The notes beneath the pieces were generated by a model. It searched no databases. It was not told the DNA's origin and saw nothing but the letters and a program-made list of their open reading frames with translations. The translations under genes were made by a program, and so were the position numbers. A DNA stretch of 64,000 nucleotides, taken from NCBI GenBank assembly GCA_963663495.1, contig OY760427.1, forward strand, positions 412,040-476,039, written 5' to 3'. The stretch is from Rhodothermales bacterium. Its GTDB lineage: Bacteria > Bacteroidota > Rhodothermia > Rhodothermales > Bin80. Below are positions 22,437-49,793 of this stretch, one piece after another; within the stretch, counting starts at the first letter, position 1, and every line of letters begins with the position of its first letter.

Positions 22437-23027
22437 ATGATTGATGGACCATTAGGAATCCGTAAGTTGCCGAGGCATTGGAAAACGGTAGCGGAGCGAG
22501 CGGCCAACGAGAACTACACACTCACTGACTTGATGCAGGCGATAGAGCTTGCGCTGCGCAACGAGATTGGCAAAATCCCAATCACTGATATTGTAAGGAA
22601 TCTGGACAATGGCGTGCAGGCCATTCCCTTTTCTGACAGCGAATCAGTTTCAATTGACCTGTGTTAGGAGGACTTCATCGGTAGCGGCCTAGGGCTCTTA
22701 CTTAAGGACATTTTACAAGAGGAACCTTTTGGGGAGAAAACCGGGAAAGTTTTGGTGCAGACCTCTCTCTATAAGGCGCTCAAGATATACGCAGCTGCGC
22801 AGGCGCGCGAAATAGTGCGGCACTATTTGCTCGACACTCGCGGCGGTTTTTCAGTCTCTCCACTTCGTGTGCGACTCAAAGAAGCTATTGACTGCTGTCA
22901 CTTTTCCGATTTGGCCAGCGAATACGTTGATGGGCGCGGCTCGGCACCGAAAAAGGCGGGGCAACTAACTAAGCATTTCGGTCTCGACTCGGGGCCTCAG
23001 ATTCCAGCTCTGTGCGCCGAGAAATAG
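22437..23027 (+). pseudogene. Hypothetical gene interrupted by one in-frame TAG (22665-22667)
   Basis: ORF 22437-22667 and the open frame 22668-23027 are in the same frame. Its end overlaps the QueC-like start by 16 nt. Confidence 0.35.
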
Positions 23028-26424: not shown

Positions 26425-27135
26425 TAGGTTAGTATTTTGCCTGAATTCGAGGAATCCAATAGTGTTCGGGATGTGAGCACTCAGGAGATTGTGTTAAGAC
26501 CCCGAGCTCAGACCTACAAATTGCATGAATAGTTGTGTCGCTCGGCGGGGGAGATGTTTCCGCGTGTGGAATTGTTCGAGCAGAAGACGCGGGGTACAGG
26601 TGTCTGATAGATTGGCATGAGGTATCTCGTAGGCACAAGAGTCCTGTAAGTGCAGTGAGGCATGACTAATAGGCGGATGGGAGATCGATCCTATCCGAGA
26701 TGTGCTGGGGCGAACGAATATAATGTGTTCATTTGCGGTAGTTGGATTGGAAGCTAAGAACGGCGAGGAGGAGAGTCGTGGCTGGGAGAGGCAACTCGAT
26801 TCGCTACTGAGTATCAGAAGGCTTGTGGTCACGCCATCAACGGGGAAGGAGGGTTTGTCAACATAATTGGCCCATATTCAACCAACAAGACGATCACTTG
26901 GCCCTTATTCTTGGGGAAGAATGCCTGTCGCGGGATGCAGACTGGGTCTGAGTTTCAATTTTGTCAGCTAAGCCGGCCATTGGCATTTGATTCCCAGACA
27001 ATCACCATATGACGCTACTGAGTTTGCTATCCCAACTAGGTCTGACCACACTTTTCCGGGACCATAGCCCAAACACGGGTCGTCTATGGTCAGATTTTCG
27101 ATTTCAAGGCGTTGAGTCACAGCGGCGGTGCCACC

Positions 27136-30642: not shown

Positions 30643-32793
30643 TGGCCAGGAAACTGATCGAAGTAGCGATTCCATTGGACGCCATCAACAGGGCGTCCAA
30701 GCGGGAGAAGTCGATTCGGCACGGGCATCCAAGCACGCTGCATTTGTATTGGGCGCGGAGGCCACTCGCTGCGGCGCGTGCTGTAATCTTTGCCCAGATG
30801 GTGGATGACCCGTCGGAGTATGTTGATGTCCTGCTTTCTGATGCCCGAAGGCGCCGCGCTGCGGAAACAGAACTCAGAAAAAGCGCGGAGAAGGGCGGAA
30901 ATGATGACCTGACCATTGAAGAGGTAGCCATTGAGCTGGAGCGCAAGCGGCTGTTTCGCATTATCGAGGAACTCGTTGTTTGGGAGAATTCCACTCGAGA
31001 AGATGTGCTGGACCGTGCACGCGATGAAATCTGGCAGAGCTGGAGGAGAGCATGCGTTCGCAACGCGGGAGAGCCGGATGCCGAGGTGCTTTACGATCGG
31101 CACAAGCTGCCGCCGTTTCACGACCCGTTTTGTGGAGGAGGAGCGATTCCATTGGAAGCCCAGCGTTTGGGGTTGGAGGCACATGCTACGGATTTGAACC
31201 CCGTGGCGGTACTGATAAACAAGGCGATGCTGGAAATCCCGCCGCGGTTTGCCGGAAGGCCGGCAGTGAATCTGGAGGCCCAGAGGGTTGGGGGCGGATG
31301 GAATGGAGCAGAGGGGCTTGCGGCGGATGTGGCTTATTACTCTGAGTGGATGCGTGCGCGAGCCAAGGAGCGCATTGGGCACCTTTATCCCAAGATTCAT
31401 GTGACTGTTTCCATGGCGCGGGATCGAGATGACTTGAAGAATTATGTGGGAAGAGATCTTACCGTGATTGCGTGGCTGCATGCACGCACGGTGCGTAGTC
31501 CGAATCCGGCATTCTCCGATGTAGAGGTGCCGCTGGTATCAAGCTATCTGCTGTCGAGCAGGAAAGGCAAGGAAGTGTATCTGCATCCGGTGGTTGAGAA
31601 GACTCGGTACCGTTTTGAGGTGCGCAAGGATACTCCGCCAGATTATTCGGCAACGAGGGCCGGTACCAAGCAGGGGCGCGCCAGCTTTAGGTGCATTGTT
31701 TCGGGGACGACTATTACCGCAGGTTATATCCGCAAGGAAGGCCAGGCTGGGAGATTAGGGAGCGGGCTGATTGCCATCGTAGCAGATGGGGCTCCTGGAC
31801 GCATTTACCTGCCTGCAACACCGGAGCATGAGGAAGCCGCGCGGGCTGCTCATGCTGAGTGGCGGCCGGATCTACCGTTGCCGAAAAAAGCACTGAGTTT
31901 TAGTGCACAGTTGTACGGCTTCAAGACGTATGGTGACCTGTACACCGAACGTCAGGTGGTAGCCTTAACCGCCATGTCGGACTTGGTGGAGGATGTAAAG
32001 CAGGAAGTGGAAAAAGACGCGATCCGCTCCTACACAATATATACACACGTGCGGGGGGGCGACGTATTGCAGACGGCGGTGCCGGAGCACGCGCTTACGG
32101 AGAAGCCCTCGGCGTCTACATGGCGCTTTGCATCGACAAGGCCGCCGATTATTGGTCCCACATTTGCACGTGGGATGCGTCACGGGATAATATTAGAAAC
32201 ACCTTTACTCGCCAAGCCCTTCCCATAACGTGGGATTACGCGGAAGCCAACCCGTTTTCTCACTCAACAGGAAACTGGTTTAGCTTCGCCAGTTGGGTCA
32301 GCAAGGTGCTGTTGGCACTGCCGACCAAAAGCCAAGGTCACGGATACATCGCGGATGCCCAGGTGGGAAATGCCAGTGCAAACGCTGTCGTTTCGACTGA
32401 TCCGCCTTACTACGACAATATTGGGTACGCGGATTTGTCGGACTACTTCTACGTCTGGCTCCGGCGTACCCTGCACAGCACATACCCGGAGTTATTTGCA
32501 ACGGTAGCCACACCAAAGGCTGCAGAATTGATTGCCTCGCGCTACCGCCACGGTAGCAAACAGCAGGCGGAGGTATTCTTCCTGGAAGGGATGACGCGCA
32601 CGTTACGCAATGTGTCTAGGCAGGTGCATCCCGAATTCCCCGTCACGATCTATTATGCCTTCAAGCAGAGTGAGAAGCGCTACGATGGCGGCGACGTAAG
32701 CACGGGGTGGCAGACATTCCTGGAAGCATTGGAGCGCGCAGGGTATGCCGTGACCGGTACTTGGCCAATGCGAACAGAGCTCATGAATCGTCC

Positions 32794-34583
32794 GAGCCTT
32801 TTGCAAAACCCTTGAATCGGGGTGTTTTTGTCTGAAGATGCGATTTCCTAAGATAGGGGGCTGGTCAGGTAGATTTGACTGCTCGGCGGGTGCAGATGGA
32901 GGATTCTACAGGCCATGAAAATGTGTGCTAGCAAGCACACTTGAGGGACTGGAACCTCCGTGTTAGGTATCTTTGGAGGAGAAACTAAACTCGCAAAAAA
33001 CGAAGGTTCTCATGTCTCTCAATTCTAAGTTAAGCGGATTCTGGATCAACTGCCAACGGGAGCTTTTTCCCTGGGTGGAGGAAACGATTGGCCCCTTGGA
33101 GGGGCGCCATAAGAAGCTGCTCTCGGTACTGGAGATGGTGCGAGTTGAGCGCTTTCTGCCCAGTGCTCAGGACGGTATACCCGGGCGTCCGTTGAAGAGC
33201 CGTGCTGCCCTCGCGCGGGCGTTCCTGGCGAAGATGGTGTTCAATATGGATACGACCAGAGCGTTGGTGGAGCGGTTGCGTTCGGATCCGACGCTGCGGC
33301 GTTTGTGTGGTTGGCATCGGTTGGAGGATGTGCCGAGTGAGGCGACCTTTTCACGTGCGTTCAGGGAATTTTCAGAGGCGGAATTGCCGACGCGTGTACA
33401 TGAGGCTCTGATAAAGGAGGGGTATTCGGAGCAGTTGGTGGGGCACCTATCGCGTGATTCGACCGCAATAGCAGCGCGAGAGAAGCCGGTACTGAAAAAG
33501 GAGTCGGAGCGTCCAGAGTGCAAACCAGCGAGTCCTTCCAAGGATGAAGAGCGTTCAAAGAAGCCGAAGCGGCTCGTGGGCCAGCTGGCAATAGAGATGG
33601 AGGAGGAATTACCGGAGGTGGGCCATCCATCGCAGGATTCGACCGCGATAGTGGCGCAAGAGGACCCGGTACCCCAGAAAAAGGAGTTAGAGCGTCCAGA
33701 AGAGTGCAAATCATCGCATCCTACCAAGGATGAAAAGCCTCCGAAGGAGTTGCCGCGGCTGGTGCGCCAGCGTACCATGGGGACAGAGGAGATGTTGGAG
33801 GAGTTACCGAAGCGATGTACGGTAGGCGTTAAGCGCAATGCGAAGGGACATACGCAGAAATGGACGGGGTACAAGTTGCACATGGATGTGGCCGACGGAG
33901 GCGTACCGATCAGCGGTTTTGTTTCCTCTGCATCATTGCATGATAGCCAAGCGGCGATTCCGTTGGCTACGATATCTCAACTGCGGGTACGCAATTTGTA
34001 TGATCTGATGGACAGTGCATACGACGCGAAGCAGATTCACGAGCACAGTAAAGGCTTGGGGCACGTGCCGATTATCGACCATAATCCGCGACGCAAAGGT
34101 AAGGCGGCGCTTATCCGCGAGAAAACGGCCCAGCGAGCAGCCGGATTGGTACTGCCTGAGGATGTTCGTTACAGGGAGCGCTCAACGGTTGAGCGAGCCT
34201 TCGGGCGGCTCAAGGATGAGTTTGGTGGTCGTAATGTCCGCGTGCGTGGGCACAAGAAGGTGACATGCCACTTGATGTTCGGCGTGCTGGTACTGACGGT
34301 AGATCAGCTGTTGCGTATGGTGCAATAGAGACAGGAATCCAGACGTAAATTGCGCTAATCGGGTTTTGTGCGAAGCAGGAGCTAGGCATAGGTGTGCCCG
34401 CAAAGCACGGATTCTGCCCCGAATTCACCCCCCCGGGAAGCCTTCAACGCCTATGGACCGCCTATACATCTGGATCCAAAGGCTACACATGCCAATGCTC
34501 CCGGCGTAATGTCGAAAAACCCGAAAATTTGGGCATTTTGGTCGCCACCACCGCCGAATACACCGGGGTTTTGCAAAAGGCTC
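32794..34583 (+). mobile_element. IS5/IS1182-like insertion sequence inside the methyltransferase gene
   Basis: IRs GAGCCTTTTGCAAAACCC (32794) and GGGGTTTTGCAAAAGGCTC (ends 34583). Direct repeat GTCC at 32790-32793 and 34584-34587. Excision restores ELMNRPNSIGSNAL. Confidence 0.8.
33012..34328 (+). CDS. DDE transposase (DUF772 N-terminal region + DDE_Tnp_1-type core)
   Basis: RLRSDPTLRRLCGW, SRDSTAI, YKLHMDV, RERSTVERAFGRLKDEFG motifs. Internal about 60-aa duplication. Confidence 0.8.
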   Translation: MSLNSKLSGFWINCQRELFPWVEETIGPLEGRHKKLLSVLEMVRVERFLPSAQDGIPGRPLKSRAALARAFLAKMVFNMDTTRALVERLRSDPTLRRLCGWHRLEDVPSEATFSRAFREFSEAELPTRVHEALIKEGYSEQLVGHLSRDSTAIAAREKPVLKKESERPECKPASPSKDEERSKKPKRLVGQLAIEMEEELPEVGHPSQDSTAIVAQEDPVPQKKELERPEECKSSHPTKDEKPPKELPRLVRQRTMGTEEMLEELPKRCTVGVKRNAKGHTQKWTGYKLHMDVADGGVPISGFVSSASLHDSQAAIPLATISQLRVRNLYDLMDSAYDAKQIHEHSKGLGHVPIIDHNPRRKGKAALIREKTAQRAAGLVLPEDVRYRERSTVERAFGRLKDEFGGRNVRVRGHKKVTCHLMFGVLVLTVDQLLRMVQ

Positions 34584-35387
34584 GTCCAAATAGCATTGGG
34601 TCAAACGCGCTGGCATCGTCTATCGTGCTAGTATGCAGGCCTGTCAGGAAAGCAAGGCCGCAGACTACACGGAAAAAATTTGTTCAGGAATTACAAGAGG
34701 AGGTGCGCACTGCTATAAAGGTGCTTACCAGCGCTAATACTGCTCCCGTCGATGTGGCGCAAGCAGCGATCGGACCGGGCATGGCGGTATTTACGCGCTA
34801 CGAGCGAATCATCGACGCACGAGGGAATAGATTAAGCGTGTCGGACGCTCTTTCCCTCACCAACAAGGTGCTCGATGACATCACTTCAGAAGAGGAGGGC
34901 GATCTGGATACAGACAGTCGCTGGTCCTTGAGCTGGTTCAAGCAGCATGGATTTGCAGAGGGAACGTATGGTGATGCTGAGCAGCTATCCAAAGCCAAGA
35001 ATACCAGCGTGTCGGGATTGGTCGAGGCGGGCGTGCTTATCTCGGGAGGTGGCGCGGTGCGGCTGCTCAAGCCCGAGGAACTTCCAGAAGATTGGGATCC
35101 TGAACAGGATATGCGGCTCACCGCATGGGAAACCGTGCATCATCTGATTCGAGCACTTGACACGGGAGGCGAAATGGAAGCCGCGAACATTATTGCTCGA
35201 CTAGGAGCGGGAGCGGAAAGCGCGAGAGACTTGTGTTATCGATTGTATGTGCTATGTGAGCGGTCGAAGCGGATGGCCGAGGGCTTTGCCTACAACCGCC
35301 TCGTACAGAGCTGGCCGGAGATTACCCGGCTTGCCAAGAATATCCCCCATGAGCAGGGGACGCTAGATCTAGACTAAACTGTATTCC

Positions 35388-38300
35388 ATGGCTGCAACAA
35401 ATCACGAGCGCGTCGGACAAGCGCTCCACCTACTGAAACAGGGGCTTGCCCCCTTCGTCGATCGCGAAATCAAAGAAGCAGTATCGTCAGGTCGAGTGGA
35501 TACCGCATTATCATTAGGAAGCAGCGAGTGGCCGAGTGAGCCCATTGCGGAGTGGGATGCCGCTGCTCTACTCAAGCTGATGGTGCGGGTATGGGAAGAG
35601 GTGTTCCGTATACCACTTGGGTACGCCGAAAGGAATCTTGTGAGCGAACTGCGAACCACCCGCAATAAGTGGGCCCACCAGGAGCGCTTTTCGAGCGACG
35701 ATACCTACCGCGCACTTGATTCAACGCACCGACTTCTGCTTGCAGTCTCGGCACCTGAATCTGGAGCGGTGGATCAGATGAAGAAGGAACTGCTTCGAAT
35801 TCAATACAGCCAACAGGTACGCAATGATCTGCGAAAGCAGCGCGGATCCAATATTGAGCGCACGGGCTCCCACGAATTGCCTGCGTGGCGCGATGTTGCC
35901 GAGCCGCACGAGGATGTGACAAGCGGCGATTTTCAGCAGGCTGAGTTTGCGGCTGATCTGTGGCAGGTGCATGTGGGAGAAGGACAAATAGAATACCAGG
36001 ATCCGGCGGAGTTTTTCAGGCGCACCTTCCTGACAGACAGCCTCAAAGCCCTCCTGTCGGGAGCTATCCGAAGGCTATCTGGATCCGGTGGAGACCCGGT
36101 TGTCCAATTGCAGACAAACTTTGGTGGAGGCAAGACACATTCTATGCTCGCCCTTTACCACCTGGTGTCAGGCGTAAATACGGCAGCGTTGGAGGGATTG
36201 GACGATCTGGTGGTAGAGGTGGGTAGGCCTGTGCCTGCGTCCGTACGGCGTGTGGTATTGGTGGGCAATAAGATTTCTCCAGGCAATCCATCGGTGAAGG
36301 AGGACGGCACGCAGGTACGCACCTTGTGGGGTGAGCTGGCATGGCAGCTTGGGGGAAAGGAGGCATTTGAGCAAGTTGCGGAAGACGACCGCCATGCGAC
36401 CAATCCGGGGGATGTCCTACGTCAACTCTTTAACCGTTACGCCCCGTGCCTTGTGTTGATCGACGAATGGGTGGCCTACGCGCGCCAGCTTCTGGAACGA
36501 AGTAATCTACCCGGTGGAAATTTCGACACACAGTTTACTTTCGCGCAGGCACTGACCGAGGCGGCCAAGGGTGCGAAAGAGTGTCTCCTGGTGATAAGCC
36601 TGCCAGCTTCGGATACGGCCGGCACGGCGCACACGCATGCGGAGGATATTGAAGTCGGGGGTGTGCGTGGCCGCGATGCATTAATACGACTACAGAACGT
36701 GACGGGCAGGGTTGATTCTTCCTGGCAGCCCGCGAGCGCAGACGAGGGCTTTGAGATCGTTCGCAGGCGCCTGTTCGCACCCTTGCGCGAGGAGGCCCAG
36801 TCTCGCAAACGTGATACCGTTGCGCGAACCTTTGTTGAATACTATAGGGCAGCAAAAGGAGCCTTCCCTTCGGAATGTGCGGAGCGCGACTACGAACGCC
36901 GGCTCACGTCTGCCTATCCTTTGCATCCGGAGATCTTTGACCGCCTTTACAGCGATTGGTCCACTCTCCCGCGCTTCCAGCGTACCCGCGGTGTACTGCG
37001 CCTAATGGCGGCAGTAATCCATGCACTCTGGGAGGAGGGGGACAGGAACCCGCTCATAATGCCCTGCCACATTCCCATGAGCCGGCAGGATGTAAAGTCG
37101 GAGTTGACAAGGTACTTGCCAGAAGGCTGGTCACCGGTCATAGATGCGGATATTGACGGGCCGGGATCCACGCCCACCCAAGTGGAAAAAGCAGAAAGTC
37201 GGATGGGCCGTTATAGCGCCGCTCGGCGCGTTTCAAGGACGATCTATCTGGGGTCCGCTCCGAGACAGGGATCGAGTCATCCTGGCGTTAACGAGCAGCG
37301 AATCAGGCTAGGTGCGGCCGTGCCGGGTGAACCCAGTGGGGTGTTTGATGACGCGCTCCGCAGGCTGGCTTCGCAGTCTACCTACCTCTATCAGGAGGAT
37401 GTCCGCTATTGGTACAATACACGACCAACGGTCGCGCGTCTCGCCAAGGATCGGGCACAGTCCATGCATAACAATCCGCATCGCGTGATGGACGAGTTGC
37501 AGCGACGATTGAATGAGGACGTAAAGTCACGCGGTGATTTTAGCAGGGTACATGTTCTGCCAACGGGGTCGTTCGAAATCCCAGACGAGATGGGCGCGCG
37601 CCTCGTGATTCTTGGTGCAGACCATCTATATACTCGCGGACCAGGCAATGCGGCCGAGCAGGCGGCAACCGAGTACGTGAGGAGTCGAGGAAACATCGCT
37701 AGGGTATACCATAATACCTTGGTATTCCTGGCAGCCGACAGTGGACGATGGCAAGACCTGGATGAAGCGATATGCCTGCAATTGGCTTGGCAGTCCATCC
37801 TTGATGAAAAAGACGAACTCAATCTTGATCCGCAGCAGGTAAAGCAAGCGCAATCTCGCTGCGAAAAGGCAGGTGAAACCGTAAAGTCCCAAATATCGGC
37901 AGCGTTCCAGTGGCTATTGGTGCCGGCCAAGATCCACGCAGACGGCTCGTTGGATTATGAGGCCCATCGAATGACCGGGTCAGGGTCGTTGGCGGAGCGT
38001 GCGGCAACCAAGTTGAAAGGAGAGGAGCTTCTAGTGCCCATCCTGGCACCCAGCCGGCTACGGATGGAGCTCGACGACATGCCCCTTTGGAAGGATCACG
38101 TTGCCTTGTCCGAGCTGGCAAGCGACTTTGCGCAATTCCTTTACCTTCCGCGCCTCACTTCGACTAACGTCTTGGTGGAAGCCATAAAGCGAGGTCTCGT
38201 TGGGCAAATCAACTGGATAGAAGAGTCCTTTGCATATGCCGACGAATTCGACGAGCGCACGGGGAAATACACGGGTTTGAAGGTGGCAACCGATCTCCCG

Positions 38301-38690
38301 TTGGATCCCGCGTTCCTCACAGGGCTATTGGTGCAGCCCGATGTAGCGCAACGCCATTTTGCGGCCGATAAACCCGAGATAATTACCGAAAAGAGAAGCC
38401 TCCCCGAAGGGGAAAAAGTTGAGACAGAACCTGTCAAAGATCCGCATCCTTTCAAACCCAAGAGGTTCTTCGGAAGTGCATCAACGGATTCTCCACGGAT
38501 AGGCACCTGGGCGGCGAGGATTGGAGACGAAGTGATGGGCCACCTTGCAGGCATTGAAGGAGCAAAATGTACCGTGACGCTGGAGATAACGGTTGACGCC
38601 CCTGAGGGAATTTCGGATCGGGTTCGGAACACTGTACGGGAGAATGCAACCGTGCTGGGATTTAAGACAATTGTGTTTGAGGATGACTAG
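35388..38690 (+). CDS. DUF499-type P-loop ATPase with N-terminal Swt1-like HEPN motif
   Basis: TTRNKWAHQERF (R-x4-H), Walker A NFGGGKTHSM, Walker B LVLIDEWV. 1100 aa. Confidence 0.8.
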   Translation: MAATNHERVGQALHLLKQGLAPFVDREIKEAVSSGRVDTALSLGSSEWPSEPIAEWDAAALLKLMVRVWEEVFRIPLGYAERNLVSELRTTRNKWAHQERFSSDDTYRALDSTHRLLLAVSAPESGAVDQMKKELLRIQYSQQVRNDLRKQRGSNIERTGSHELPAWRDVAEPHEDVTSGDFQQAEFAADLWQVHVGEGQIEYQDPAEFFRRTFLTDSLKALLSGAIRRLSGSGGDPVVQLQTNFGGGKTHSMLALYHLVSGVNTAALEGLDDLVVEVGRPVPASVRRVVLVGNKISPGNPSVKEDGTQVRTLWGELAWQLGGKEAFEQVAEDDRHATNPGDVLRQLFNRYAPCLVLIDEWVAYARQLLERSNLPGGNFDTQFTFAQALTEAAKGAKECLLVISLPASDTAGTAHTHAEDIEVGGVRGRDALIRLQNVTGRVDSSWQPASADEGFEIVRRRLFAPLREEAQSRKRDTVARTFVEYYRAAKGAFPSECAERDYERRLTSAYPLHPEIFDRLYSDWSTLPRFQRTRGVLRLMAAVIHALWEEGDRNPLIMPCHIPMSRQDVKSELTRYLPEGWSPVIDADIDGPGSTPTQVEKAESRMGRYSAARRVSRTIYLGSAPRQGSSHPGVNEQRIRLGAAVPGEPSGVFDDALRRLASQSTYLYQEDVRYWYNTRPTVARLAKDRAQSMHNNPHRVMDELQRRLNEDVKSRGDFSRVHVLPTGSFEIPDEMGARLVILGADHLYTRGPGNAAEQAATEYVRSRGNIARVYHNTLVFLAADSGRWQDLDEAICLQLAWQSILDEKDELNLDPQQVKQAQSRCEKAGETVKSQISAAFQWLLVPAKIHADGSLDYEAHRMTGSGSLAERAATKLKGEELLVPILAPSRLRMELDDMPLWKDHVALSELASDFAQFLYLPRLTSTNVLVEAIKRGLVGQINWIEESFAYADEFDERTGKYTGLKVATDLPLDPAFLTGLLVQPDVAQRHFAADKPEIITEKRSLPEGEKVETEPVKDPHPFKPKRFFGSASTDSPRIGTWAARIGDEVMGHLAGIEGAKCTVTLEITVDAPEGISDRVRNTVRENATVLGFKTIVFEDD

Positions 38691-40410: not shown

Positions 40411-41520
40411 ATGAGTCCACGAGATATACTTGGGGCAAACGGCAAAGGTAATCCTACATCGCGAGTCAGGGTATTCGACTTCTTTTCTGGTTGCGGCGGG
40501 GCTAGTCGTGGGTTCAAGGAAGCTGGAATGGATGTGGTGTTTGCCCTAGACTGGGACACGAACGCCAAGCGGACCTTTGAGCAAAATTTTCCGCAGACCA
40601 AGTTTGTGGCCAAGGACATCCGAAAGGTGAACGAAGACACAGTCCGCAGGCTTGTTGACCAACTGCGACCCCACCCCGTCCTGTTCTCTGGATGTGCTCC
40701 CTGCCAGCCGTTTACTCGGCAAAATACTATTCGTCCTGCGCCAGATCAAGACGAACGGGTGCCGCTGCTCCTTGAATTTCTCCGCTTCATACAGACATGC
40801 GAACCGGACATCGTGTTCGTAGAAAACGTTCCCGGGATTCAGAATGTGTGCCCTAACTCGGAGCCGATCAGTGATTTTCTTCGGGGACTGAGCGACGCGG
40901 GATACGCGAATCCGGCCTACGATTCTGTATCCTTAAAACGGTACGGGGTGCCCCAGGGCCGCAAGAGATTCCTGTTACTCGCGAGCCGGCATAGCCGACT
41001 GGATCTCCCTTGCGAGACGCACGGCCCTGGAACCGATAATCCCGACTACTCCACCGTGCGTGAGTGGATCGGTGACTTTCCAAGGCTGGCCGCTGGTGAA
41101 ACGGATCCCAACATCGCTGACCACCGCGCAGCCGGCCTATCCTCGCTTAACCTGAAACGCATTCGCGCGACACCCGAAGGCGGTGGCAACCGGGATTGGC
41201 CGGAGTGCCTTCAGCTCGCGTGCCACCAAGGTGCAACGGGGTACAGCGATGTGTACGGTCGCATGTCGTGGGACAGGCCGGCTTCTGGACTGACCACGCG
41301 GTGTATCAGCTATTCAAACGGCCGCTTCGGTCATCCCGAGCAAGATCGTGCGATCAGCGTCCGGGAAGCCGCTTGTCTTCAGACATTCCCGATGGAATTT
41401 CGTTTTTCTGGTGCCTTAACCTCAATGGCTCGGCAAATTGGTAATGCCGTGCCCGTGAGGTTGGCTACCATCGTTGGCCGCCATGTGACCAGGCACTTGG
41501 CAGAGGTGGGCCTCAGCTGA
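40411..41520 (+). CDS. dcm: DNA (cytosine-5)-methyltransferase
   Basis: Motif I FDFFSGCGGASRGF, motif IV GCAPCQPFT, motif VI FVENVPG, motif VIII QGRKRFLL, motif X IGNAVPV. ATG at 40411. Confidence 0.9.
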   Translation: MSPRDILGANGKGNPTSRVRVFDFFSGCGGASRGFKEAGMDVVFALDWDTNAKRTFEQNFPQTKFVAKDIRKVNEDTVRRLVDQLRPHPVLFSGCAPCQPFTRQNTIRPAPDQDERVPLLLEFLRFIQTCEPDIVFVENVPGIQNVCPNSEPISDFLRGLSDAGYANPAYDSVSLKRYGVPQGRKRFLLLASRHSRLDLPCETHGPGTDNPDYSTVREWIGDFPRLAAGETDPNIADHRAAGLSSLNLKRIRATPEGGGNRDWPECLQLACHQGATGYSDVYGRMSWDRPASGLTTRCISYSNGRFGHPEQDRAISVREAACLQTFPMEFRFSGALTSMARQIGNAVPVRLATIVGRHVTRHLAEVGLS

Positions 41521-44489
41521 TGGCATTTGAAGCAACCTTCAAAGCACGAGCCAGAACGCTGGACATGTTGGGGAGGCAGCAGATCGCTGGCATTCCAACA
41601 GCGATTAGCGAGCTGTTCAAAAACGCGCACGATGCGTATGCCTCTAGGGTGGTGGTGGACTACTACCGGCAGGACGGTCTGTTTGTCCTACGGGATGACG
41701 GTAACGGCATGGAAACCAGCGAATTCGTTGACCGATGGCTTACCCTAGCGACCGAGGCCAGCGTTATGCGCAACGGAGGAAAAGGTCGGCTCGCGGAGTC
41801 CGCGAAAAATGCACGCCCTGTCCTTGGAGAAAAAGGCATTGGTCGCCTCGCTATCGCTACAATCGCCCCCCAAGTGCTGGTACTTACTCGCGCGCGGCGT
41901 AATGGCGCGTTATCCGACCTCACCGCTGCCTTCGTGAACTGGCGTGTATTTGAGTGCCCTGAGCTAGATCTTCAGGACATCAGGATTCCGATTCGGACAT
42001 TTCGAGGAGGAACACTTCCCGACAAAACGGATGTTGCCAGCATGGTTGGTTATTTCCACCGTCGGAACGAGCGACTTCGCCGCCGCGTGGACAGCAAGAA
42101 ATGGGACCAATTGGAAGCCGAGCTTTCACAATTTAATGTTGATCCTTCGGAAATGGCGAAGGATATGGGTAAGCCGACGCTTCTTGGCGGCGGTCACGGT
42201 ACCCACTTCTACCTTCTACCTGCATCCACTAATCTAAAACACGACATAGCGGGGGATCGCGGCTCTGATGTGGCGCCACCGCTCCAGAGAGCACTCTTGG
42301 GGTTCACCTGTCCGTCATTTGCTGGTGGGGGCGAACCAGTCATCCACACCTCTTTTTGGGATCACCGGGTCGATGGCACCCGTGAAGATCTAATTGGGGA
42401 GAGGAGTTTCTTCACCTCCTACGAGTACGAGAATGCCGATCATCAAATCTGGGGGCGATTCGATGAGTACGGCCAGTTCAAGGGGAGTGTCACCGTGTAC
42501 GGCGATACTGTGGAGGATCATGTGATCCACTGGAGCGGCGGGAAGGGGAAGAAGACGGATTGCGGTCCGTTCCACGTCAGGTTCGCCGCAGTGGAAGGGG
42601 TGGCGCGGTATTCGACCTTGCCACCAGAGGAGCATGGCCGTATGCTTGATAAGACGCGAAAGATCGGTGGTTTGTACATCTATCGGGACGGCGTACGCAT
42701 TCAGCCGTACGGAAACACCGACTACGATTGGCTCGAAATCGAACTCCGACGGACAAAAAGTGCTTCGTACTACTATTTCTCCTACCGGCAGATGTTTGGT
42801 GTCGTTGAGGTAGACTCAACCCACAATGGGCGGCTTCGCGAGAAGGCTGGTCGCGAAGGATTTCGCAAGAACAAGGCGTTCCGTGACTTACGGGGAATAC
42901 TGAAGAGCTTCCTCGTGCAGATCGCCGCAGATTTCTTCCGTCAGGAGGGCGTACATGGCGATCGGTTCGTGAGTCGGAAGCGGGAGATAGAGGAAAACGA
43001 ACGGCATCTACGCGCACGCTCCAAGCAAGTCACCGCTAAGCGCACCAAGTTCAAGAAGGAATTGACCGCATTCTTCAACCGGATGGAGACTGAGAAGCCG
43101 CTTGAAAGGATCTTGGAATTGGGTGAGAAAATTGAGGCGCGCGTTAGGGAGGCAGGCCTTGATACGGATCGTCTGAGGGCGGCCAGACGGATCATCAAAA
43201 TTGAAAGTGAAGCACGAAAGGGACTCAAGGATCTGGAAGCCAGCTATCAGGTCTCCAAGCCCCGAATTGGTATGAGCCGAGCCTTGCAACGGGAGTGGGG
43301 CGATTATCAGGAGGCGTTCGCGAACCTCCGCGAGAGCAGTCACAACCTCCGTGACATGATTGAGAGCGTCGTGACACAGGAAGTGACCGACGCGGGAGTT
43401 AGCCTAAGTGCGCGAAAGCGCATAGAGACAGCTCTCAACGAGGAAGGACAATCTGCGCGGCGCGAGATCAGAAAACTTCGCAAGGATGTGGTGAAGGAGG
43501 CCGAGGATATCCTTGTCGGTGTACAAGCTATCGGGCGCCAGTGTGTTCGGGATGTTGAGTCGGCGATCCGGGCCACGATGGCCAATTTCGCTCGGCGTGA
43601 ATTTGAGAACATTGACGACCAGCAACTGATTGCGGTACGCTCGGACTTGGAGGCACCAATCCGCAAGGCTTTGGACAACGCTACTGGTAAGCTTAGCGCA
43701 CTGCGCTTCCAGCTGGCAGCGGTCGTCCTTAGGAATGACTCCTCCCTGGTAGATCAGCTTGAAGCGGTTGAACAGAGCAATCTCACGTTACGGGAGCAGG
43801 CTTCCGTCGACCTCCACCTCGTACAGGTCGGCATGGCAATTGAGATTATTAGCCACGAATTCGGCGCAGCCATCCGTTCAGTCCGGTCGGGGCTTCGAAG
43901 TCTCAAGGCCTGGGCTGACCTGAACCAAGACCTGAAGTCGCTTTATCAAGGGATCCGCGGCAGCTTTGACCACCTTGATGGTTACCTCACCCTCTTCACA
44001 CCGCTTCAAAGGAGGCTTTACCGCAAAGCGGTGGACATCCATGGATGGGAGATCTACGAGTTTCTGACTAACCTATTCGGCCAGCGACTGGCCAGACATA
44101 ATGTCCACATGACTCGAACCGATGCTTTTGCCGCTGCTATGGTAACTGGTTATCCGTCTTCGTTTTACCCTGTCTTTGTCAATCTCGTGGACAACGCGAT
44201 CTATTGGCTCGCCGGCAAGAACGAGCGCTTTGAACGGCGAATCCGGCTTGATGCATCTGGAAATACGTTCTGTATCTCGGATTCGGGTCCAGGAATCCAT
44301 GGCCGTGATCAAGACTACATCTTTGATATCGGGTTTACCCGGAAGCCGGGGGGACGTGGTATGGGATTACACATCTCAAGGGCAACATTACGCGAAGTAG
44401 GCTATGACCTGATCCACCAAGCGGATGCCCCGGGGCAGGGTGCAACATTTGTTATCATACCGATCAGGAAAAAGGGACGGGCGCATTGA
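41520..44489 (+). CDS. Fusion protein: N-terminal MORC/MutL/Hsp90-type GHKL ATPase module + C-terminal histidine-kinase core (H-box + HATPase_c)
   Basis: N-terminal ELFKNAHDAYA, LRDDGNGM, GEKGIGRLA. C-terminal H-box AIEIISHEFGAAIRS (His codon 43854-43856), N box VNLVDNAIYW, G1 SDSGPGI, F IFDIGFT, G2 GRGMGLH. The ATG overlaps the dcm stop (TGATG). Confidence 0.75.
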   Translation: MAFEATFKARARTLDMLGRQQIAGIPTAISELFKNAHDAYASRVVVDYYRQDGLFVLRDDGNGMETSEFVDRWLTLATEASVMRNGGKGRLAESAKNARPVLGEKGIGRLAIATIAPQVLVLTRARRNGALSDLTAAFVNWRVFECPELDLQDIRIPIRTFRGGTLPDKTDVASMVGYFHRRNERLRRRVDSKKWDQLEAELSQFNVDPSEMAKDMGKPTLLGGGHGTHFYLLPASTNLKHDIAGDRGSDVAPPLQRALLGFTCPSFAGGGEPVIHTSFWDHRVDGTREDLIGERSFFTSYEYENADHQIWGRFDEYGQFKGSVTVYGDTVEDHVIHWSGGKGKKTDCGPFHVRFAAVEGVARYSTLPPEEHGRMLDKTRKIGGLYIYRDGVRIQPYGNTDYDWLEIELRRTKSASYYYFSYRQMFGVVEVDSTHNGRLREKAGREGFRKNKAFRDLRGILKSFLVQIAADFFRQEGVHGDRFVSRKREIEENERHLRARSKQVTAKRTKFKKELTAFFNRMETEKPLERILELGEKIEARVREAGLDTDRLRAARRIIKIESEARKGLKDLEASYQVSKPRIGMSRALQREWGDYQEAFANLRESSHNLRDMIESVVTQEVTDAGVSLSARKRIETALNEEGQSARREIRKLRKDVVKEAEDILVGVQAIGRQCVRDVESAIRATMANFARREFENIDDQQLIAVRSDLEAPIRKALDNATGKLSALRFQLAAVVLRNDSSLVDQLEAVEQSNLTLREQASVDLHLVQVGMAIEIISHEFGAAIRSVRSGLRSLKAWADLNQDLKSLYQGIRGSFDHLDGYLTLFTPLQRRLYRKAVDIHGWEIYEFLTNLFGQRLARHNVHMTRTDAFAAAMVTGYPSSFYPVFVNLVDNAIYWLAGKNERFERRIRLDASGNTFCISDSGPGIHGRDQDYIFDIGFTRKPGGRGMGLHISRATLREVGYDLIHQADAPGQGATFVIIPIRKKGRAH

Positions 44490-46084
44490 TGTGCACTGAA
44501 GACTACGCAGAGCACTGTAGAGAGATTGCACGGCGTTTCCTCCTTACGGCGGTCGTAGTCGACGACGAACTCGCTGTTGTTGACGATGCTGTTGTCCACC
44601 GTAAACTCACGACGCCCGGACGGGGTGTGTCAATGCCGACAGCAATGGAGTCCGGTCCAACTCAGAACCGCTCGCTCAATGTTAACCTAATCACACGGTC
44701 CTTTGCTCGGCTCGGCATGATTTGTGGGCTGGTATCACCACTGAAAGGGGAGGATACCGAGGAGCTGCTTGCCAAAGCCGTCGCTCGTGCGGATATTGTG
44801 ATTTTGGACTGGATTTTGGACCGGACGACCGGCGCCAACGCGCTGCAGCTGTTGAAGCGGATTCTGACTGAAGACCAGCCTCGCCGACTTCGCCTGCTAG
44901 CGTTCTACACCGGCGAGCCCGATCATGACAAGATTCGCGTAAAGATCGTCGAGTGCGTTAACGGAATTGACGACCTGTACAAAGCGGGATGCCCCAGCGA
45001 TGGCAGCGACAAAGCCATCAGCTACCGTTCTTGCCGGATTGTAGTGTACGGGAAGCCCGGATCTGGTACCCGTGATTTGGAAAGCGAGGTTGACGAGGAG
45101 AAATTGGCCGACCGGCTAATCGCCGATTTCGCCAGTATGGTTGAGGGGCTTCTGCCCAGTTTGGTTCTTACCGCTCTGGGCGCAGTTCGGGAGAATGTGT
45201 ATCAATTGCTGGAGTGTTTCGGACCCGATCTTGACCCGGCATTTCTTGTGCATCGCGTATGCTTACCACAACCTGCGGATTCTGATCTACACATCGTAGA
45301 ACAGATCACAAGTGAATTGCATGGGATCATGGAAGACGCGGTCGGTAAATGGCGTCCGGCGGGAATCCGTGCGATTAAGCTATGGCTCGAGAAGCACTTC
45401 CCCGAAAATGAAGACATCGTGCTTGCACCGAGGAGTAAAGGTCAGGACGCTAAGCGGATATCTCGGGGCAAAGCCATTGATTTGCTTAAGAATGGCATTA
45501 AGGAGAGCTCAGGACCACTTAAAAAGAATGGCAGCGAATACGATCTTCTCTCTCATGGATTCACGGGGGGCGCAGATAACAGCCGGGAACTTGATCAACG
45601 TCTCGCCGCCGTTATGAGCTTTCGTCAGGTACCGCCTTCCGATCGGCGCCAGCTATCATTGGGCACGGTAATGGTCAAAGACGAAAATAAATCAGGAACC
45701 TTCCTCCTTTGTGTCACTCCGCAATGCGATAGCGTTCGATTGACCGGAACGACAAAATTTCTTTTCCTCCGACTCACAAACGCCAAAGCCAATACCTCGC
45801 GGCTTGTGGTGCCGGTCAGCGATACCGAACACCGGTGCATGACCATATCACTGAATCCATCGCAGTGGTGTCAGCTAAAATTCGCACGCGACCGTGAGGT
45901 GCGCTGCGTATTGGCGCAGCGGAATGATACCGATAATTCCTTCACGTTTAAGGATAAGAACGACATAGCATACCGCTGGGTAGGAGAGTTGAAGTTCGGA
46001 CAGGCCCAGGCAATCGCGATGTTAATTGCCCAAAGAATGTCTAGGATCCCTCTCAACCAGTCGGAGTGGCTCAGACGGTCATAG
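44489..46084 (+). CDS. Receiver (REC) domain protein with an about 340-aa uncharacterised C-terminal domain
   Basis: AVVVDDEL (acidic pair), ADIVILDWILD (Asp codon 44807-44809), LLAFYTGEP (Thr), VVYGKPG (Lys-Pro). The ATG overlaps the upstream stop (TGATG). Confidence 0.65.
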   Translation: MCTEDYAEHCREIARRFLLTAVVVDDELAVVDDAVVHRKLTTPGRGVSMPTAMESGPTQNRSLNVNLITRSFARLGMICGLVSPLKGEDTEELLAKAVARADIVILDWILDRTTGANALQLLKRILTEDQPRRLRLLAFYTGEPDHDKIRVKIVECVNGIDDLYKAGCPSDGSDKAISYRSCRIVVYGKPGSGTRDLESEVDEEKLADRLIADFASMVEGLLPSLVLTALGAVRENVYQLLECFGPDLDPAFLVHRVCLPQPADSDLHIVEQITSELHGIMEDAVGKWRPAGIRAIKLWLEKHFPENEDIVLAPRSKGQDAKRISRGKAIDLLKNGIKESSGPLKKNGSEYDLLSHGFTGGADNSRELDQRLAAVMSFRQVPPSDRRQLSLGTVMVKDENKSGTFLLCVTPQCDSVRLTGTTKFLFLRLTNAKANTSRLVVPVSDTEHRCMTISLNPSQWCQLKFARDREVRCVLAQRNDTDNSFTFKDKNDIAYRWVGELKFGQAQAIAMLIAQRMSRIPLNQSEWLRRS

Positions 46085-46172
46085 AGTCATGCGATTGCAG
46101 GAAGACCAATGACGGCCCGGGTTAATGTCCTGATCACACCCCCAATTCCCAGAGTACCCGCTGCGGCTCTCC

Positions 46173-46449
46173 TCAAAGAAACCCAACTCTCCGCGCGGCG
46201 ATCGCTTCCAGATCGGACTTATCACATTCTTGGATCACAATCACTCGCCACCCGATTTGGTGGAAGGCTTCCCCATTCCGCAGGTCTTGGACGACATTGC
46301 CATTGAACTAGTTCTTGTAGAACTGAAGGTCATGTAGTGTTTCTCGTTGAATTCGGGACGTGGAGTAGCTTTCGCATCCTGTAACCTGCCGATGCTAGCG
46401 GCAATACGGTTGGCAAGATTAGGGGGCTAACTCTTGTTGGGTTTCCATA
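46173..46449 (-). pseudogene. vsr: Decayed very-short-patch repair endonuclease (vsr) remnant, frameshifted and split by the 46450-49798 insertion
   Basis: C-terminal frame NGNVVQDLRNGEAFHQIGWRVIVIQECDKSDLEAIAARRVGFL resembles the Vsr ...N.ERD......L...GWRVL.VWEC tail. An upstream frame gives ATPRPEFNEKH (compare PATRTEFWLEKI). Confidence 0.45.
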
Positions 46450-46910
46450 GGGAGTTATATGGCTGAGTGCCACGCGTTTTCGCAGGCGTTACTTTTTGTG
46501 CTTTGGTGGTGCAGACAGGATGGCTTTCGCCAGTTCTTCCAATGTGGTAGGGATGGATTGTTGGATATTGAGAATGTCGTTTGTCACGGGGCGGCCGGGG
46601 CGTTTCGTTTCCTGAATCTTGTTACCGGGCTTCGGGGATTTATCTATGCGCATGGCGTTATAAGCTATAGAGTAGCACTAATCCATTGGGGCAGAATACC
46701 GAAATGATTGCATGGCGGACATCTGCTTAGAGCATGTAGGAGGCTGCATATCCAGTTTTCACGACAGTCGATCAATTTCAGGACCGATTCCTTGGCTTAT
46801 ATCGGGATGCTCTTGACAATGCGGAAGTACTGGGCGGACCCCGGTACGGGCCACGAAGCGCACCGGACGAACCCATGAGACGCGGGCCATCAAGCACAGA
46901 CATGGAAAAG

Positions 46911-47093
46911 CTAGCACATAACGGCCTTGACCACCGGAATGGGTACGGCGTTGCCAGTAAGCCGTCTGACAGTCGTTATCGGACTGTCAATCTCGTAGCT
47001 GTCGGGGAAGCCTTGCAGGCGCAGTATTGCGCGGCCCGTTAGTCTCCGTCCACGAGCAAGCAGTTGTAGCTGGCCGATGCCCGGAGTGCGCAT
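46911..47093 (-). pseudogene. C-terminal fragment of a second C5 DNA methyltransferase
   Basis: RLTGRAILRLQGFPDSYEI...RLTGNAVPIPVV matches the motif IX-X region of C5-MTases. No N-terminal part present. Confidence 0.6.
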
Positions 47094-47131: not shown

Positions 47132-48088
47132 CTATGAAATGAGGGATTTGTACATGAGCCGTTTACCGACCAGTCCTTGAGCAATTATTGCCATTTGCTC
47201 CGCTGTGTCGAAGTCGCGTGCATTGTGTCGCCCTGCAAATTCGTTCACGTACCGCTGTAGGTGTTTCTTGCTCATGTGGTGGTACGTTCCGTAGTACCCA
47301 CGCTTCAGCAATGACCAGAAGCTCTCTACGCCATTGGTGTGGACCTGCTCACGAACGTATTCGCCAACAGAGTGACGTACGTAGGCGTAGTTGTTGCGGC
47401 CCCGGTATGTTGACGAACCATCCGTATAGACCTCGGTGTCTTCCGAGACATGGGTATCCACAAACGCATTGAGCGTCTGTCCGTCTGTGTTTTCTACTAC
47501 TTGGGCAGAAATACTATTGGTGACACGATCACGGACTCCTACAACGGCTTTCTTACCTACTGGCCCACGGCCTGCATTCAGCTTCTTACTGGCGTGCCTG
47601 TTCTTTTCCTTACCACCGAAGTAGGCTTCGTCAACCTCTACCGGACCGGCAAATAGTGCATGCTCTCCATTCCATGATTATCGAATACGGTGGGACAGAT
47701 GCCACGCTGTAGTCTGGGTTATGCTAAGGTCACGATGCAGCTTCATGCTGGATACGCCCTTGATACTGGTAGTCATGATGTAAATGGCTAATGCCCATAC
47801 CTGGTATCCCAGTTTCGAGTCCTGCATTACTGTTCCTATGCGGATACTGAATCGTTTACCGCAACTACGGCAACGATAAGGCATGCTAGGATGCTTGGCG
47901 CCGCACTGTACGTTGTTAGACGCACAGTGCGGGCAAACAGGAGTGTCGCCCCAACGCTTCATTGCGAACCATGCTTCGGCTGATGGGTCGTCTGGAAACA
48001 TTTTGGTTAGCTTGATCAAGGACACTCCTTCACGATCAGCCCGTCCAGGGCCATTGGTGTTTCTGTTGTTTCTTTTCTTTGAAGGCAT
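47132..48088 (-). pseudogene. IS1595-family transposase with a single in-frame TAA (47678-47680)
   Basis: N-terminal zinc ribbon CPHCASNNVQC...CRSCGKRFS. C-terminal DDE_Tnp_IS1595-type HTNGVESFWSLLKRGYYGTYHHMSKKHLQRYVNEFAGRHN. ORFs 47678-48088 and 47132-47461 are in the same frame and the stretch between them is open. Confidence 0.8.
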
Positions 48089-48341
48089 CTAGTGGGTCAT
48101 CAATCTATCACGGGATGGTGCCCATTTTCGGCATAATCGGTTCCCGCTTTACGCGACCACACTGCAATTATTTCAACAATTTAACGCGCGGGCACTCAAC
48201 TGTATAACTACCATAGGTATCACTCACAGTACGGGAGCTCGCCCATCCGGCTACGACAACACACCGTGTCAAGCGCCGTGGTGGCACAAGACCGTGTGAG
48301 CACACGAATTGTTTTGGAGGACTTACGTCAAGGTTACATTT

Positions 48342-48512
48342 GGGAGTTATATGGCTGAGTGCCACGCGTTTTCGCAGGAGTTACTTTTTGTACTTTGGTG
48401 GTGCAGACAGGATGGCTTTCGCCAGTTTCTCATAATCGGTTCCCGCTTTTCACGACAAACTGCAATTATTTCAAATAACTCAACACGTGGGTATTCATGC
48501 TATATAATTGCC
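48342..48512 (+). mobile_element. 171-bp MITE of the same family as 5333-5503, placed 8 bp upstream of the tnpB unit
   Basis: GGGAGTTATATGGCTGAGTGCCACGCG ... CACGTGGGTATTCATGCTATATAATTGCC. Its right half matches the IS1595 5' arm at 48130-48212. Confidence 0.8.
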
Positions 48513-48542
48513 ATATATCAGGGAGTTATATACCACAGTGCC

Positions 48543-49793
48543 ATGCCCGAAACGGTTAGTGCATACCGCAATATTACATACAGGCTGTTGCCCGGAAGTC
48601 GGAGTAACGCCAAGCACCTTGCTGGATTAGCGGGTGCGTGTAGGTTTGTGTGGAATGCCATCCTCGCAGAGCAGAGCGAGGCGTACAAGAAAGCGAAAGA
48701 GGCTGGAGAGAAGCCGCCCTCGGTAAGCTTCTTCTCGCTGGGGAAGCGGTTCACGGCGCTGCGCCGCACGGTCGAGTGGCTACCTGAATACTCCTTTGGT
48801 GTCGTTAGATACACATTGAAATATCAGGCGGATGCATGGAAGGCATTCTTCAAGGAGGGTAAGAGAAGACCGAGATTCCATTCTAGACGTGGTAGTACGC
48901 CTTCGTTCACGATCCTGGATAACGTAAGGGTTCGGGATGGCAAGCTGTATATCCCGAAAGTGGGATATATGGCACTCCGCAGGCGGGGAGGCAACCCGTA
49001 CCCTGATGGTATACCCGTCAAAGCCACGGTAAAGAAGAACGCCGGCAAAGGGTATGCTATCATCTGCTACAAGATGGAGGCACCTGTAATAGAGGATACC
49101 GGCGGTGCTGTAGGCATTGACCGTAATTGCGGGCAGGTCGCTATGGTCTCCACAGAGGGCGATACAAGCATTATCAGACAACCGGATACCAAGCGTCTTG
49201 ATGCCAAGTTGAAGCGGCATCAGCGAAGACTGGCGAGACAGAAGAAAGGCTCCAACCGTCGTAACAGGCGGAAGCATAGCATCGCCCGCATACAGCGCAA
49301 GCGTGCTAACGTCCTCAAGAATGCGAACCACCAGGTAAGTCGCAGTATTGCCAATTGCTCCTCAACGGTGATACTGGAGGACCTGAAGATCAAAGCGATG
49401 ACACGTTCAGCTAAGGGGACGATGGAGAGCTTTGGCACAAACGTCAGACTGAAGTCTGGCCTCAACCGTGGGATACTGCGAACAGGTTGGGGCCAGCTGG
49501 ATCAGATGCTGGGCTATAAGTGCCGCAAGGTGATAAAGGTTACCGCTGCCTATACGAGTCAGCGGTGTTCTGTGTGTGGGCACACAGAAGCGAGTACCCG
49601 TAAGACACGGAGCAAATTCACGTGTATGTCCTGTGGACATGCGGATCATGCAGACCTGAATGCGGCTGCAAACATACTGGCCTCCGGGATTGGGGCTTCT
49701 GCACGGCGAGGGGCGTTCGGGTTACTGACCCCTATGACCCGTGAAATTGATACTAGTGCCTCACTGTGTACAGTTGGTCACTCACGTATATAA
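48543..49793 (+). CDS. tnpB: TnpB (OrfB_IS605-type RNA-guided endonuclease family), 416 aa
   Basis: RuvC-like GIDRNCG, ILEDLKIK, HADLNAAANI. Zn finger CSVCGH...CMSCGH. ATG 48543: the track ORF start at 48309 reads through the MITE. Confidence 0.9.
   Translation: MPETVSAYRNITYRLLPGSRSNAKHLAGLAGACRFVWNAILAEQSEAYKKAKEAGEKPPSVSFFSLGKRFTALRRTVEWLPEYSFGVVRYTLKYQADAWKAFFKEGKRRPRFHSRRGSTPSFTILDNVRVRDGKLYIPKVGYMALRRRGGNPYPDGIPVKATVKKNAGKGYAIICYKMEAPVIEDTGGAVGIDRNCGQVAMVSTEGDTSIIRQPDTKRLDAKLKRHQRRLARQKKGSNRRNRRKHSIARIQRKRANVLKNANHQVSRSIANCSSTVILEDLKIKAMTRSAKGTMESFGTNVRLKSGLNRGILRTGWGQLDQMLGYKCRKVIKVTAAYTSQRCSVCGHTEASTRKTRSKFTCMSCGHADHADLNAAANILASGIGASARRGAFGLLTPMTREIDTSASLCTVGHSRI

Follow-up and report, generated by a model that had tools for sequence, protein, structure and literature searches.

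A cytosine methyltransferase, double-ATPase histidine kinase and receiver operon in a Rhodothermales genome: a member of the HEF_HK/Response_reg_2 module with a candidate effector output

What kind of system is encoded where a C5 cytosine DNA methyltransferase (C5-MTase), a histidine kinase with two ATPase domains and a receiver protein follow each other directly? We addressed this question for a locus at positions 40411-46449 of a 64,000-nucleotide stretch of contig OY760427.1 from a Rhodothermales bacterium; the whole of this stretch is called the window below. An earlier note, made from the sequence alone, had read the three genes (here g1, g2 and g3) as a candidate phosphorelay-gated restriction or defence module and knew of no described system that joins them. 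Its domains and gene layout make the locus a typical example of the module defined by the Pfam families HEF_HK (PF19191) and Response_reg_2 (PF19192), which travels with a C5-MTase and usually with Vsr. This module is most likely a mobile methylation-linked defence or addiction module.

The three genes lie in the same direction on the forward strand (40411-46084), and consecutive genes share 1-nt stop/start overlaps, TGATG, at 41518-41522 and 44487-44491. They form one operon, as the earlier note had proposed; the coordinates and overlaps were read directly. A promoter and terminator scan of the operon returned sites no more frequently than expected by chance. Features are listed in Table 1, and the Pfam scores of the domains of all three proteins were far above the gathering cut-offs. 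The g1 protein matches Pfam DNA_methylase over residues 20-359 (6.5e-51), TIGR00675 dcm (9.9e-39) and the PADLOC model MTase_II (1.3e-84), and by its motifs its catalytic residues are intact. An alternative GTG start at 40312 would add 33 codons.

The kinase g2 carries the HEF_HK domain at 94.6 bits against a cut-off of 24.1, and the DHp and catalytic ATP-binding (CA) domains of its C-terminus align to the kinase core of ZraS and to other solved histidine kinases in the PDB. In an alignment of 70 g2 orthologues, conservation is concentrated in the GHKL domain (residues 1-135), in the block 225-480 and in DHp plus CA. The GHKL domain is nearly invariant, and so is the 'SHEF' motif, in which H779, E780 and F781 do not vary at all. 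As far as these residues tell, both ATPase domains and the phospho-histidine of g2 are catalytically intact. We infer from Iyer et al. (2008) that the block 225-480 may be the S5/transducer-like part of a paraMORC module. Residues 481-760 gave weak matches solely to coiled-coil proteins (LmuB, HEXIM1), and no hydrophobic segment was seen in g2 (maximum KD19 1.32).

For g3, whose alternative start is a TTG at 44486, the receiver (REC) domain contains a disordered insert at residues 30-59, and its AlphaFold2 model gave CheY/flavodoxin-like matches in Foldseek. Residues D25, D26, D107, T141 and K189 do not vary even in homologues with 24% identity, and the phospho-Asp pocket is thus predicted to be intact. 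The assignments of the earlier note, namely a C5-MTase, a MORC-like GHKL ATPase joined by a charged helical middle to a histidine-kinase core, and a protein with receiver landmarks, were all borne out by these searches, and the H-box His and receiver Asp are at the codons that it gave.

The two Pfam families are consecutive entries that go back to a single publication (Bellieny-Rabelo, Pretorius & Moleleki 2021, Genome Biol Evol evab024; PMC8011034), which reported a histidine kinase-response regulator gene linkage of 91.6% over 644 regions in 628 strains. The dominant 'group 1' kinase architecture was HATPase_c_3 + HEF_HK + HATPase_c (174 of 222 sequences); the kinases were soluble, an upstream C5-MTase was prevalent and Vsr was mostly adjacent downstream of the receiver gene (PMC8011034). 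The neighbourhood was enriched in restriction-modification (R-M) domains, and an origin from paraMORC ATPases was proposed. The study was purely computational, with no experiment, left the system unnamed and left the C-terminal 340 aa of the receiver unannotated (PMC8011034). The features of this family are found at the present locus: the His-Glu of the DHp domain, the group 1 architecture, a receiver with the acidic pair, Asp, Thr and Lys, and the layout with a C5-MTase and a (truncated) Vsr. The novelty of the triad is not borne out, because PMC8011034 had already reported the linkage, the upstream C5-MTase and the downstream Vsr, and PF19191 and PF19192 were built on the pair. The earlier note had also asked whether the triad belongs to an already named system, and in essence it does. 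What appears to be new is the completeness of the triad with no separate conserved nuclease, the frequency of Vsr beside it, the family-specific output of the receiver with its predicted MazF-like fold, and the finding that Ambrosia, a system introduced below, has the sensor module of its kinase in common with the present locus, whereas its receiver and effector differ.

In order to assess how constant the triad is, we scanned GTDB representative genomes and obtained 80 loci with g3 relatives of 24-70% identity, mostly from uncultured marine metagenome-assembled genomes (MAGs) of Gemmatimonadota, Acidobacteriota, Bacteroidota, Nitrospirota, Pseudomonadota and other phyla. The proteins of the window were compared by phmmer with all open reading frames (ORFs) of these loci. 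A g2 orthologue lies directly 5' of the receiver gene in 76 of the 80, and the complete dcm-kinase-receiver triad, unchanged in order and spacing, was found in 72; among the 73 loci having enough upstream sequence, just 4 have an incomplete triad. Vsr is present in 44 loci and absent from 36. It is convergent and right after the receiver gene in close relatives, and co-directional and right before dcm in more distant ones. When all ORFs flanking the 80 loci were clustered, neither a further conserved partner nor a conserved nuclease gene emerged. Candidate cultured carriers are Methylomicrobium sp. wino1 (CP024202.1, locus L079) and the Pectobacterium brasiliense of PMC8011034. The co-occurrence which the earlier note had proposed to check is therefore there: on these counts the triad is conserved across phyla and is self-contained in most genomes, and its distribution is patchy and horizontally transferred. 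Two Longimicrobiales MAGs (loci L007 and L046) have, at about 8000-10200, a receiver gene with a convergent vsr and no kinase or dcm within 8 kb upstream, and may hold orphan or rearranged copies of the module. A plasmid search gave two weak matches only. One of them, on the mobilizable Pseudomonas syringae plasmid pPsy0479a (locus L081, 7598-8603), is a truncated copy of the module, in which the remnant of an 'ATP-binding protein' (82 aa) and a fragment of the receiver (268 aa) lie beside an IS5 transposase.

More than 200 full-length homologues of g3 are all 500-610 aa long, with the same C-terminal region in each. Invariant or near-invariant residues there are L389, G392, C408, P411, C413, D414, R417, W497, Q507 and R519, and the LG and CxxPxCD motifs and the terminal SEWLRR are also kept across the family. 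Our AlphaFold2 runs on the whole of g3 and on residues 196-531 gave mean pLDDT values of 74 and 76, respectively. In both runs the helical middle had pLDDT values of 52-87, and a beta-rich domain followed by a helix, at residues of about 390-520, had values of 85-95. MazF/Kid toxins recurred for this barrel in both Foldseek searches of the PDB (probability 0.97-1.0, target-normalised TM 0.60-0.67), at a root-mean-square deviation of 4-5 Å over about 135 columns, with 10-12% identity and E values of 0.03-0.1, which are not significant. A viral structure library gave nothing significant either, with a PemK-like protein at probability 0.63, and g3 has no Pfam match to PemK_toxin. The output of the receiver thus has, on the model, probably a MazF-like barrel fold; the structure prediction and fold search suggested in the earlier note yielded fold evidence only.

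We then searched exhaustively by phmmer with the 154-aa C-terminal domain; at 50% identity the matches fell into 982 clusters. Of the full-length matches in the 150 top-scoring clusters that were listed, nearly all have the domain at the C-terminus of receiver-length proteins, and six of the seven non-repeat matches that were scanned carry Response_reg_2. Two giant repeat proteins (Calx-beta) that also matched were regarded as spurious. A mobile or shuffled output domain was rejected, as the domain is C-terminal to Response_reg_2 proteins among the matches listed; by this search it is specific to the family.

Other assignments for g3 did not hold. A PD-(D/E)xK nuclease (D414...E500-x-K502) was considered and rejected: at 24-40% identity E500 varies among E, Q and D, and K502 among K, R and N, and the modelled barrel plus helix does not fit an alpha-beta-beta-beta-alpha-beta core. 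For the helical middle, HEPN (Rx4-6H) and helix-turn-helix (HTH) or winged HTH (wHTH) folds were rejected too, the motif not being seen and Pfam and the fold search giving no support; Foldseek returned no credible fold match for this domain, and no PADLOC model matches g3. Residues 215-233 in the middle domain (45131-45187, conserved ASMVEGLLPSLVLTALGAV) are borderline hydrophobic (KD19 = 1.62) with low model confidence, and could be an amphipathic or membrane-interacting helix.

Experimental evidence bearing on such a module comes from Ambrosia of Pseudomonas aeruginosa, a validated anti-phage system (10.1101/2025.09.30.679545). It consists of AbrR (XRE), AbrA (N6-adenine methyltransferase), AbrB (HATPase_c_3/HATPase_c, 747 aa), AbrC (REC, 209 aa) and AbrD (HNH). 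Defence requires all five genes and is abolished by AbrB N40A in the GHKL domain or AbrC D60A in the REC domain (10.1101/2025.09.30.679545). By position count in the sequence of Table S1 of the preprint, AbrB N40 is the Mg-binding Asn of the GHKL domain and the counterpart of g2 N35. We compared g2 by BLASTP with the first 399 of the 747 residues of AbrB: the GHKL domains share 28% identity (E 3e-13), and the conserved middle domain is matched as well, with g2 338-448 corresponding to AbrB residues 277-395 (E 5e-9). AbrC was rejected as a member of the g3 family, similarity being not detectable, and no XRE or HNH ORF was found between 39965 and 46450. From these alignments Ambrosia is a cousin that shares the N-terminal module of the sensor kinase, and not the same system.

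We propose a methylation-linked, phosphorelay-triggered defence in which the C-terminal region of the receiver would be the effector, and we give this reading about an even chance. The methylase would mark resident DNA, and Vsr would repair T:G mismatches that arise from deamination of 5-methylcytosine. The MORC/MutL-type GHKL ATPase and the middle domain, dimerised via the coiled coil, would form a cytoplasmic sensor that probably reads the state of DNA, for example unmethylated or invading DNA. An ATP-driven conformational change would switch on the C-terminal kinase core, His779 would be autophosphorylated and the phosphate would be transferred to Asp107 of the receiver. Phosphorylation would in turn release the C-terminal output of g3 (helical domain and MazF-fold barrel) as effector. 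With no nuclease gene of its own conserved beside the triad, this effector would most likely be a toxin or nuclease that acts on nucleic acid. All residues required for a phosphorelay from the predicted His779 to Asp107 are present, and from their sequences the three core genes here look functional, although vsr is dead. The loss of defence in the Ambrosia N40A and D60A mutants, together with the homology of g2 and AbrB, plausibly fits this proposal. A more specific claim is that the C-terminal module of g3 is a new phosphorylation-activated effector, nuclease or toxin, which replaces the restriction enzyme, and that the triad is a self-contained immunity in which the MORC-like ATPase reads methylation or invasion and triggers the effector by His-Asp phosphorelay; this we put forward only tentatively, as possible and somewhat doubtful.

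Several points weigh against the proposed defence. For Ambrosia, its authors prefer an explanation by control of the transcription of the separate HNH nuclease gene, and phage DNA gained no protection from AbrA methylation (10.1101/2025.09.30.679545); the logic that methylation equals self may therefore not apply here. The likeness of the modelled g3 to MazF is at the level of the fold only and the catalytic residues are not transferable: the catalytic Arg and Thr of MazF could not be aligned onto g3, and hhalign gave a probability below 1% against four unverified MazF-family sequences. That the C-terminus of g3 is the effector is something we infer from the model.

The likeliest alternative is a regulatory two-component system. 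Infection or stress would be sensed by the kinase, and the receiver, once phosphorylated, would be a transcription factor for the methylase or for neighbouring R-M genes. A role of this kind was proposed for the family in 2021 (PMC8011034) and for Ambrosia in 2025, where infection induces reporter genes placed in the operon and a wHTH is attributed to AbrC (10.1101/2025.09.30.679545); type I R-M genes, moreover, adjoin about 20 of the 80 loci. However, neither Pfam and NCBIfam nor the fold search showed an HTH or wHTH in g3, and its output is unrelated to the 209-aa AbrC. In the 72 loci with a complete triad the constant partners are the methylase and often Vsr, with no restriction gene to regulate, and an output such as this 150-aa beta-barrel, conserved in about 980 clusters, does not correspond to any known type of DNA-binding regulator. 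We consider this alternative unlikely.

It is also conceivable that g2 and g3 are together the 'R' component of an unconventional ATP-dependent restriction enzyme, which would constitutively cut DNA lacking the methylation by g1 and would use phosphotransfer only for assembly or licensing. The N-terminus of g2 resembles that of the BbrUII/HgiDII restriction endonuclease (REase) family (1.1e-18), the PADLOC REase_II models match g2 as well, a DefenseFinder REase profile matches AbrB, and the methylase is always immediately upstream. But the matches of both the family and the PADLOC models cover the GHKL part only, the former with 67 bits against a cut-off of 550. No nuclease motif is conserved among the 70 g2 orthologues, and none of the PD-(D/E)xK, HNH, GIY-YIG or PLD type is conserved in g2 or g3; the candidate D414...E500xK502 fails, as described above, on its variable residues and on the barrel fold. 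Such an enzyme seems to us quite improbable. Least probable of all, and very unlikely in our view, is a function in repair or epigenetic maintenance without immunity, in which the MutL-like GHKL module and Vsr, as the nuclease, mend 5-methylcytosine deamination and the kinase and receiver report the DNA state. In its favour, Vsr is linked in 44 loci, where it lies either convergently on the downstream side or right before dcm, and E. coli Vsr is stimulated by MutL; the functional interaction of MutL with Vsr and neighbourhoods of paraMORC, methylase and Vsr have been noted (Iyer et al. 2008). But Vsr goes with C5-MTases generally, and the triad is intact although Vsr is missing from 36 loci and decayed to a pseudogene here; the distribution is patchy and the location is a defence island, and the homologous Ambrosia is anti-phage.

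The decay of vsr in the window, which the earlier note had recognised, was confirmed. The remnant is the C-terminal half only, with an in-frame stop in its translation, and close relatives of the locus have an intact Vsr at the corresponding position. The remnant is followed, at a distance of 37 nt, by a solo 96-nt repeat. Since the 5' end of the TnpB ORF carries the other copy, an insertion of insertion sequence (IS) type may have cut vsr. Between the two copies of the repeat, a 60-aa ORF on the reverse strand (46911-47093) lies next to fragments of an IS1595 transposase. It encodes the C-terminus, with motif X (GNAVP), of a second C5-MTase that is distinct from g1.

The module sits in a defence island rich in IS elements, with Hma, RmrA-like and QatC-like neighbours. 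The earlier note was right on the island and the IS debris, while the AT-rich patch that it described is mild, with a GC content of 0.52-0.58 across the module against 0.58-0.61 in the housekeeping flank. The Hma system lies 5' of the module (27112-38690), with the helicase HmaA at 27112-30642 and HmaC (HEPN_Swt1+DUF499) at 35388-38690. An IS with a DDE_Tnp_1 transposase (32973-34328) interrupts the DUF1156 methylase HmaB, of which two ORFs are left, at 30624-32228 and at 34394-35377; the system looks complete otherwise and is probably inactivated because the IS splits HmaB. Farther upstream are a QatC-like ORF (23012-23872) and an RmrA-like protein with HTH and Peptidase_M78 (24532-25722), and a fragment of an IS256-like transposase gene is found directly before g1. 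On the 3' side are IS1595 transposase fragments (47132-47461 and 47678-48088) and the TnpB ORF (48309-49793). Two large reverse-strand ORFs (1338-3242 and 12280-14589) have near-identical patterns of nested ORFs, which points to a single mobile element present more than once in the window; it is uncertain whether a third (19688-21322), with a different nested pattern, is a further copy of that element.

Table 1. Positions in the window of the module genes, their domains and the adjacent features.
Feature	Position	Strand	Evidence
g1, C5 cytosine DNA methyltransferase, 369 aa	40411 (ATG)..41520	+	motifs FSGCGG, PCQ, ENV, QGRKR, GNAVP
g2, soluble GHKL-ATPase/histidine-kinase fusion, 989 aa, 'group 1' HEF_HK architecture	41520..44489	+	HATPase_c_3 + HEF_HK + HATPase_c (Pfam)
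g2 residues 1-135, MORC/MutL-type GHKL ATPase (E31, N35, D59xGxG, GEKGIGRL)	41520..41924	+	HATPase_c_3 residues 27-129, 2.7e-12
g2 residues 225-480, conserved middle domain	42192..42959	+	motifs CGPF, GGxYxYRDxxRxxPYG, DW, REKAGREGF
g2 residues 481-760, charged helical/coiled-coil linker	42960..43799	+	37% charged, 5% Pro+Gly, low conservation
g2 residues 769-835, HEF_HK DHp domain, predicted phospho-acceptor His779 (codon 43854-43856)	43824..44024	+	PF19191 5.2e-27
g2 residues 881-980, kinase CA domain, N/G1/F/G2 boxes	44160..44459	+	HATPase_c 4.8e-16
g3, receiver protein, Response_reg_2 family, 531 aa	44489 (ATG)..46084	+	PF19192 1.4e-30
g3 residues 17-192, REC domain; D25, D26, predicted phospho-acceptor D107 (codon 44807-44809), T141, K189	44537..45064	+	Response_reg_2 1.4e-30
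g3 residues 196-377, all-helical middle domain	45074..45619	+	motifs GLLP, LDPAFLxHR, PAG, LDxRLA; conserved down to 24% identity
g3 residues 378-531, beta-barrel + C-terminal helix, MazF/Kid-like fold, candidate effector	45620..46081	+	AlphaFold2, Foldseek
vsr pseudogene, convergent with g3	46403..46170	-	tblastn with intact Vsr of locus L003: residues 66-136 only, 44% identity, E 5e-13
Solo 96-nt repeat copy	46440..46535	+	other copy 48332-48427 at 5' end of TnpB ORF; 94% identity, direct

With about 980 clusters at 50% identity, from many phyla, the family is a large one. It joins epigenetic self-marking, a MORC/MutL-type ATPase and His-Asp signalling, which are usually separate themes. The signal read by the GHKL module and the action of the receiver output bear on the way in which bacteria couple DNA-state sensing to a phosphorelay, and on the reading of methylation by MORC ATPases.

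Compared with known systems, the module is in part similar to several of them. Detocs, which Rousset and colleagues reportedly described in 2023, is said to have a kinase DtcA, a buffer receiver DtcB, a receiver-PNP effector DtcC and a TPR-type sensor. The shared logic is that a cytoplasmic histidine kinase phosphorylates an effector-fused receiver and so triggers defence, whereas the second buffer receiver, the PNP/nucleosidase and the TPR-type sensor are not found here, where a GHKL sensor and an obligatory methyltransferase partner take part. The present locus has a single receiver gene, and by Pfam g2 and g3 carry no Detocs domain and g3 neither PNP nor another known effector domain; PADLOC gave no match to g3, although the presence of Detocs models in PADLOC-DB 2.0.0 was unverified. 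With the paraMORC/MORC GHKL ATPases, the BbrUII/HgiDII REases and GHKL-Shedu (VcSduA), the module shares an intact N-terminus of the HATPase_c_3 GHKL type, whose ATP-binding motifs are present in g2, the linkage to cytosine methylase and Vsr, and the setting in defence islands. Those proteins either contain nucleases or helicases (RecB-like, DUF4263, HNH, SF2) or are paired with them, while here there is a histidine-kinase core with output via the receiver. A classical type II R-M system does not fit: beyond the partial GHKL matches, Pfam, NCBIfam and PADLOC show no nuclease domain in g2 or g3. With MazF/Kid/PemK toxins of the CcdB/MazF fold, g3 shares the predicted barrel and C-terminal helix at residues of about 390-520; unlike them it has no sequence or profile similarity and no antitoxin gene, its domain is fused to a receiver, and membership is not established.

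Ambrosia is alike in having a methyltransferase, then a GHKL-ATPase/histidine kinase, then a receiver in one cluster. Its N6-adenine methyltransferase, XRE regulator, HNH nuclease, 747-aa kinase and canonical 209-aa REC protein are not found here, there is no Vsr in Ambrosia, and the present locus has a C5-MTase and a receiver with its own 340-aa output instead. The HEF_HK/Response_reg_2 system of 2021, finally, has in common with the locus both Pfam families at high scores, a soluble group 1 kinase, an adjacent receiver gene, a C5-MTase directly upstream, Vsr directly downstream and an R-M or defence neighbourhood. Nothing essential differs, apart from a lineage that was unsampled in 2021 and the truncated vsr, and the locus in this window is a further example, not a new kind of system.

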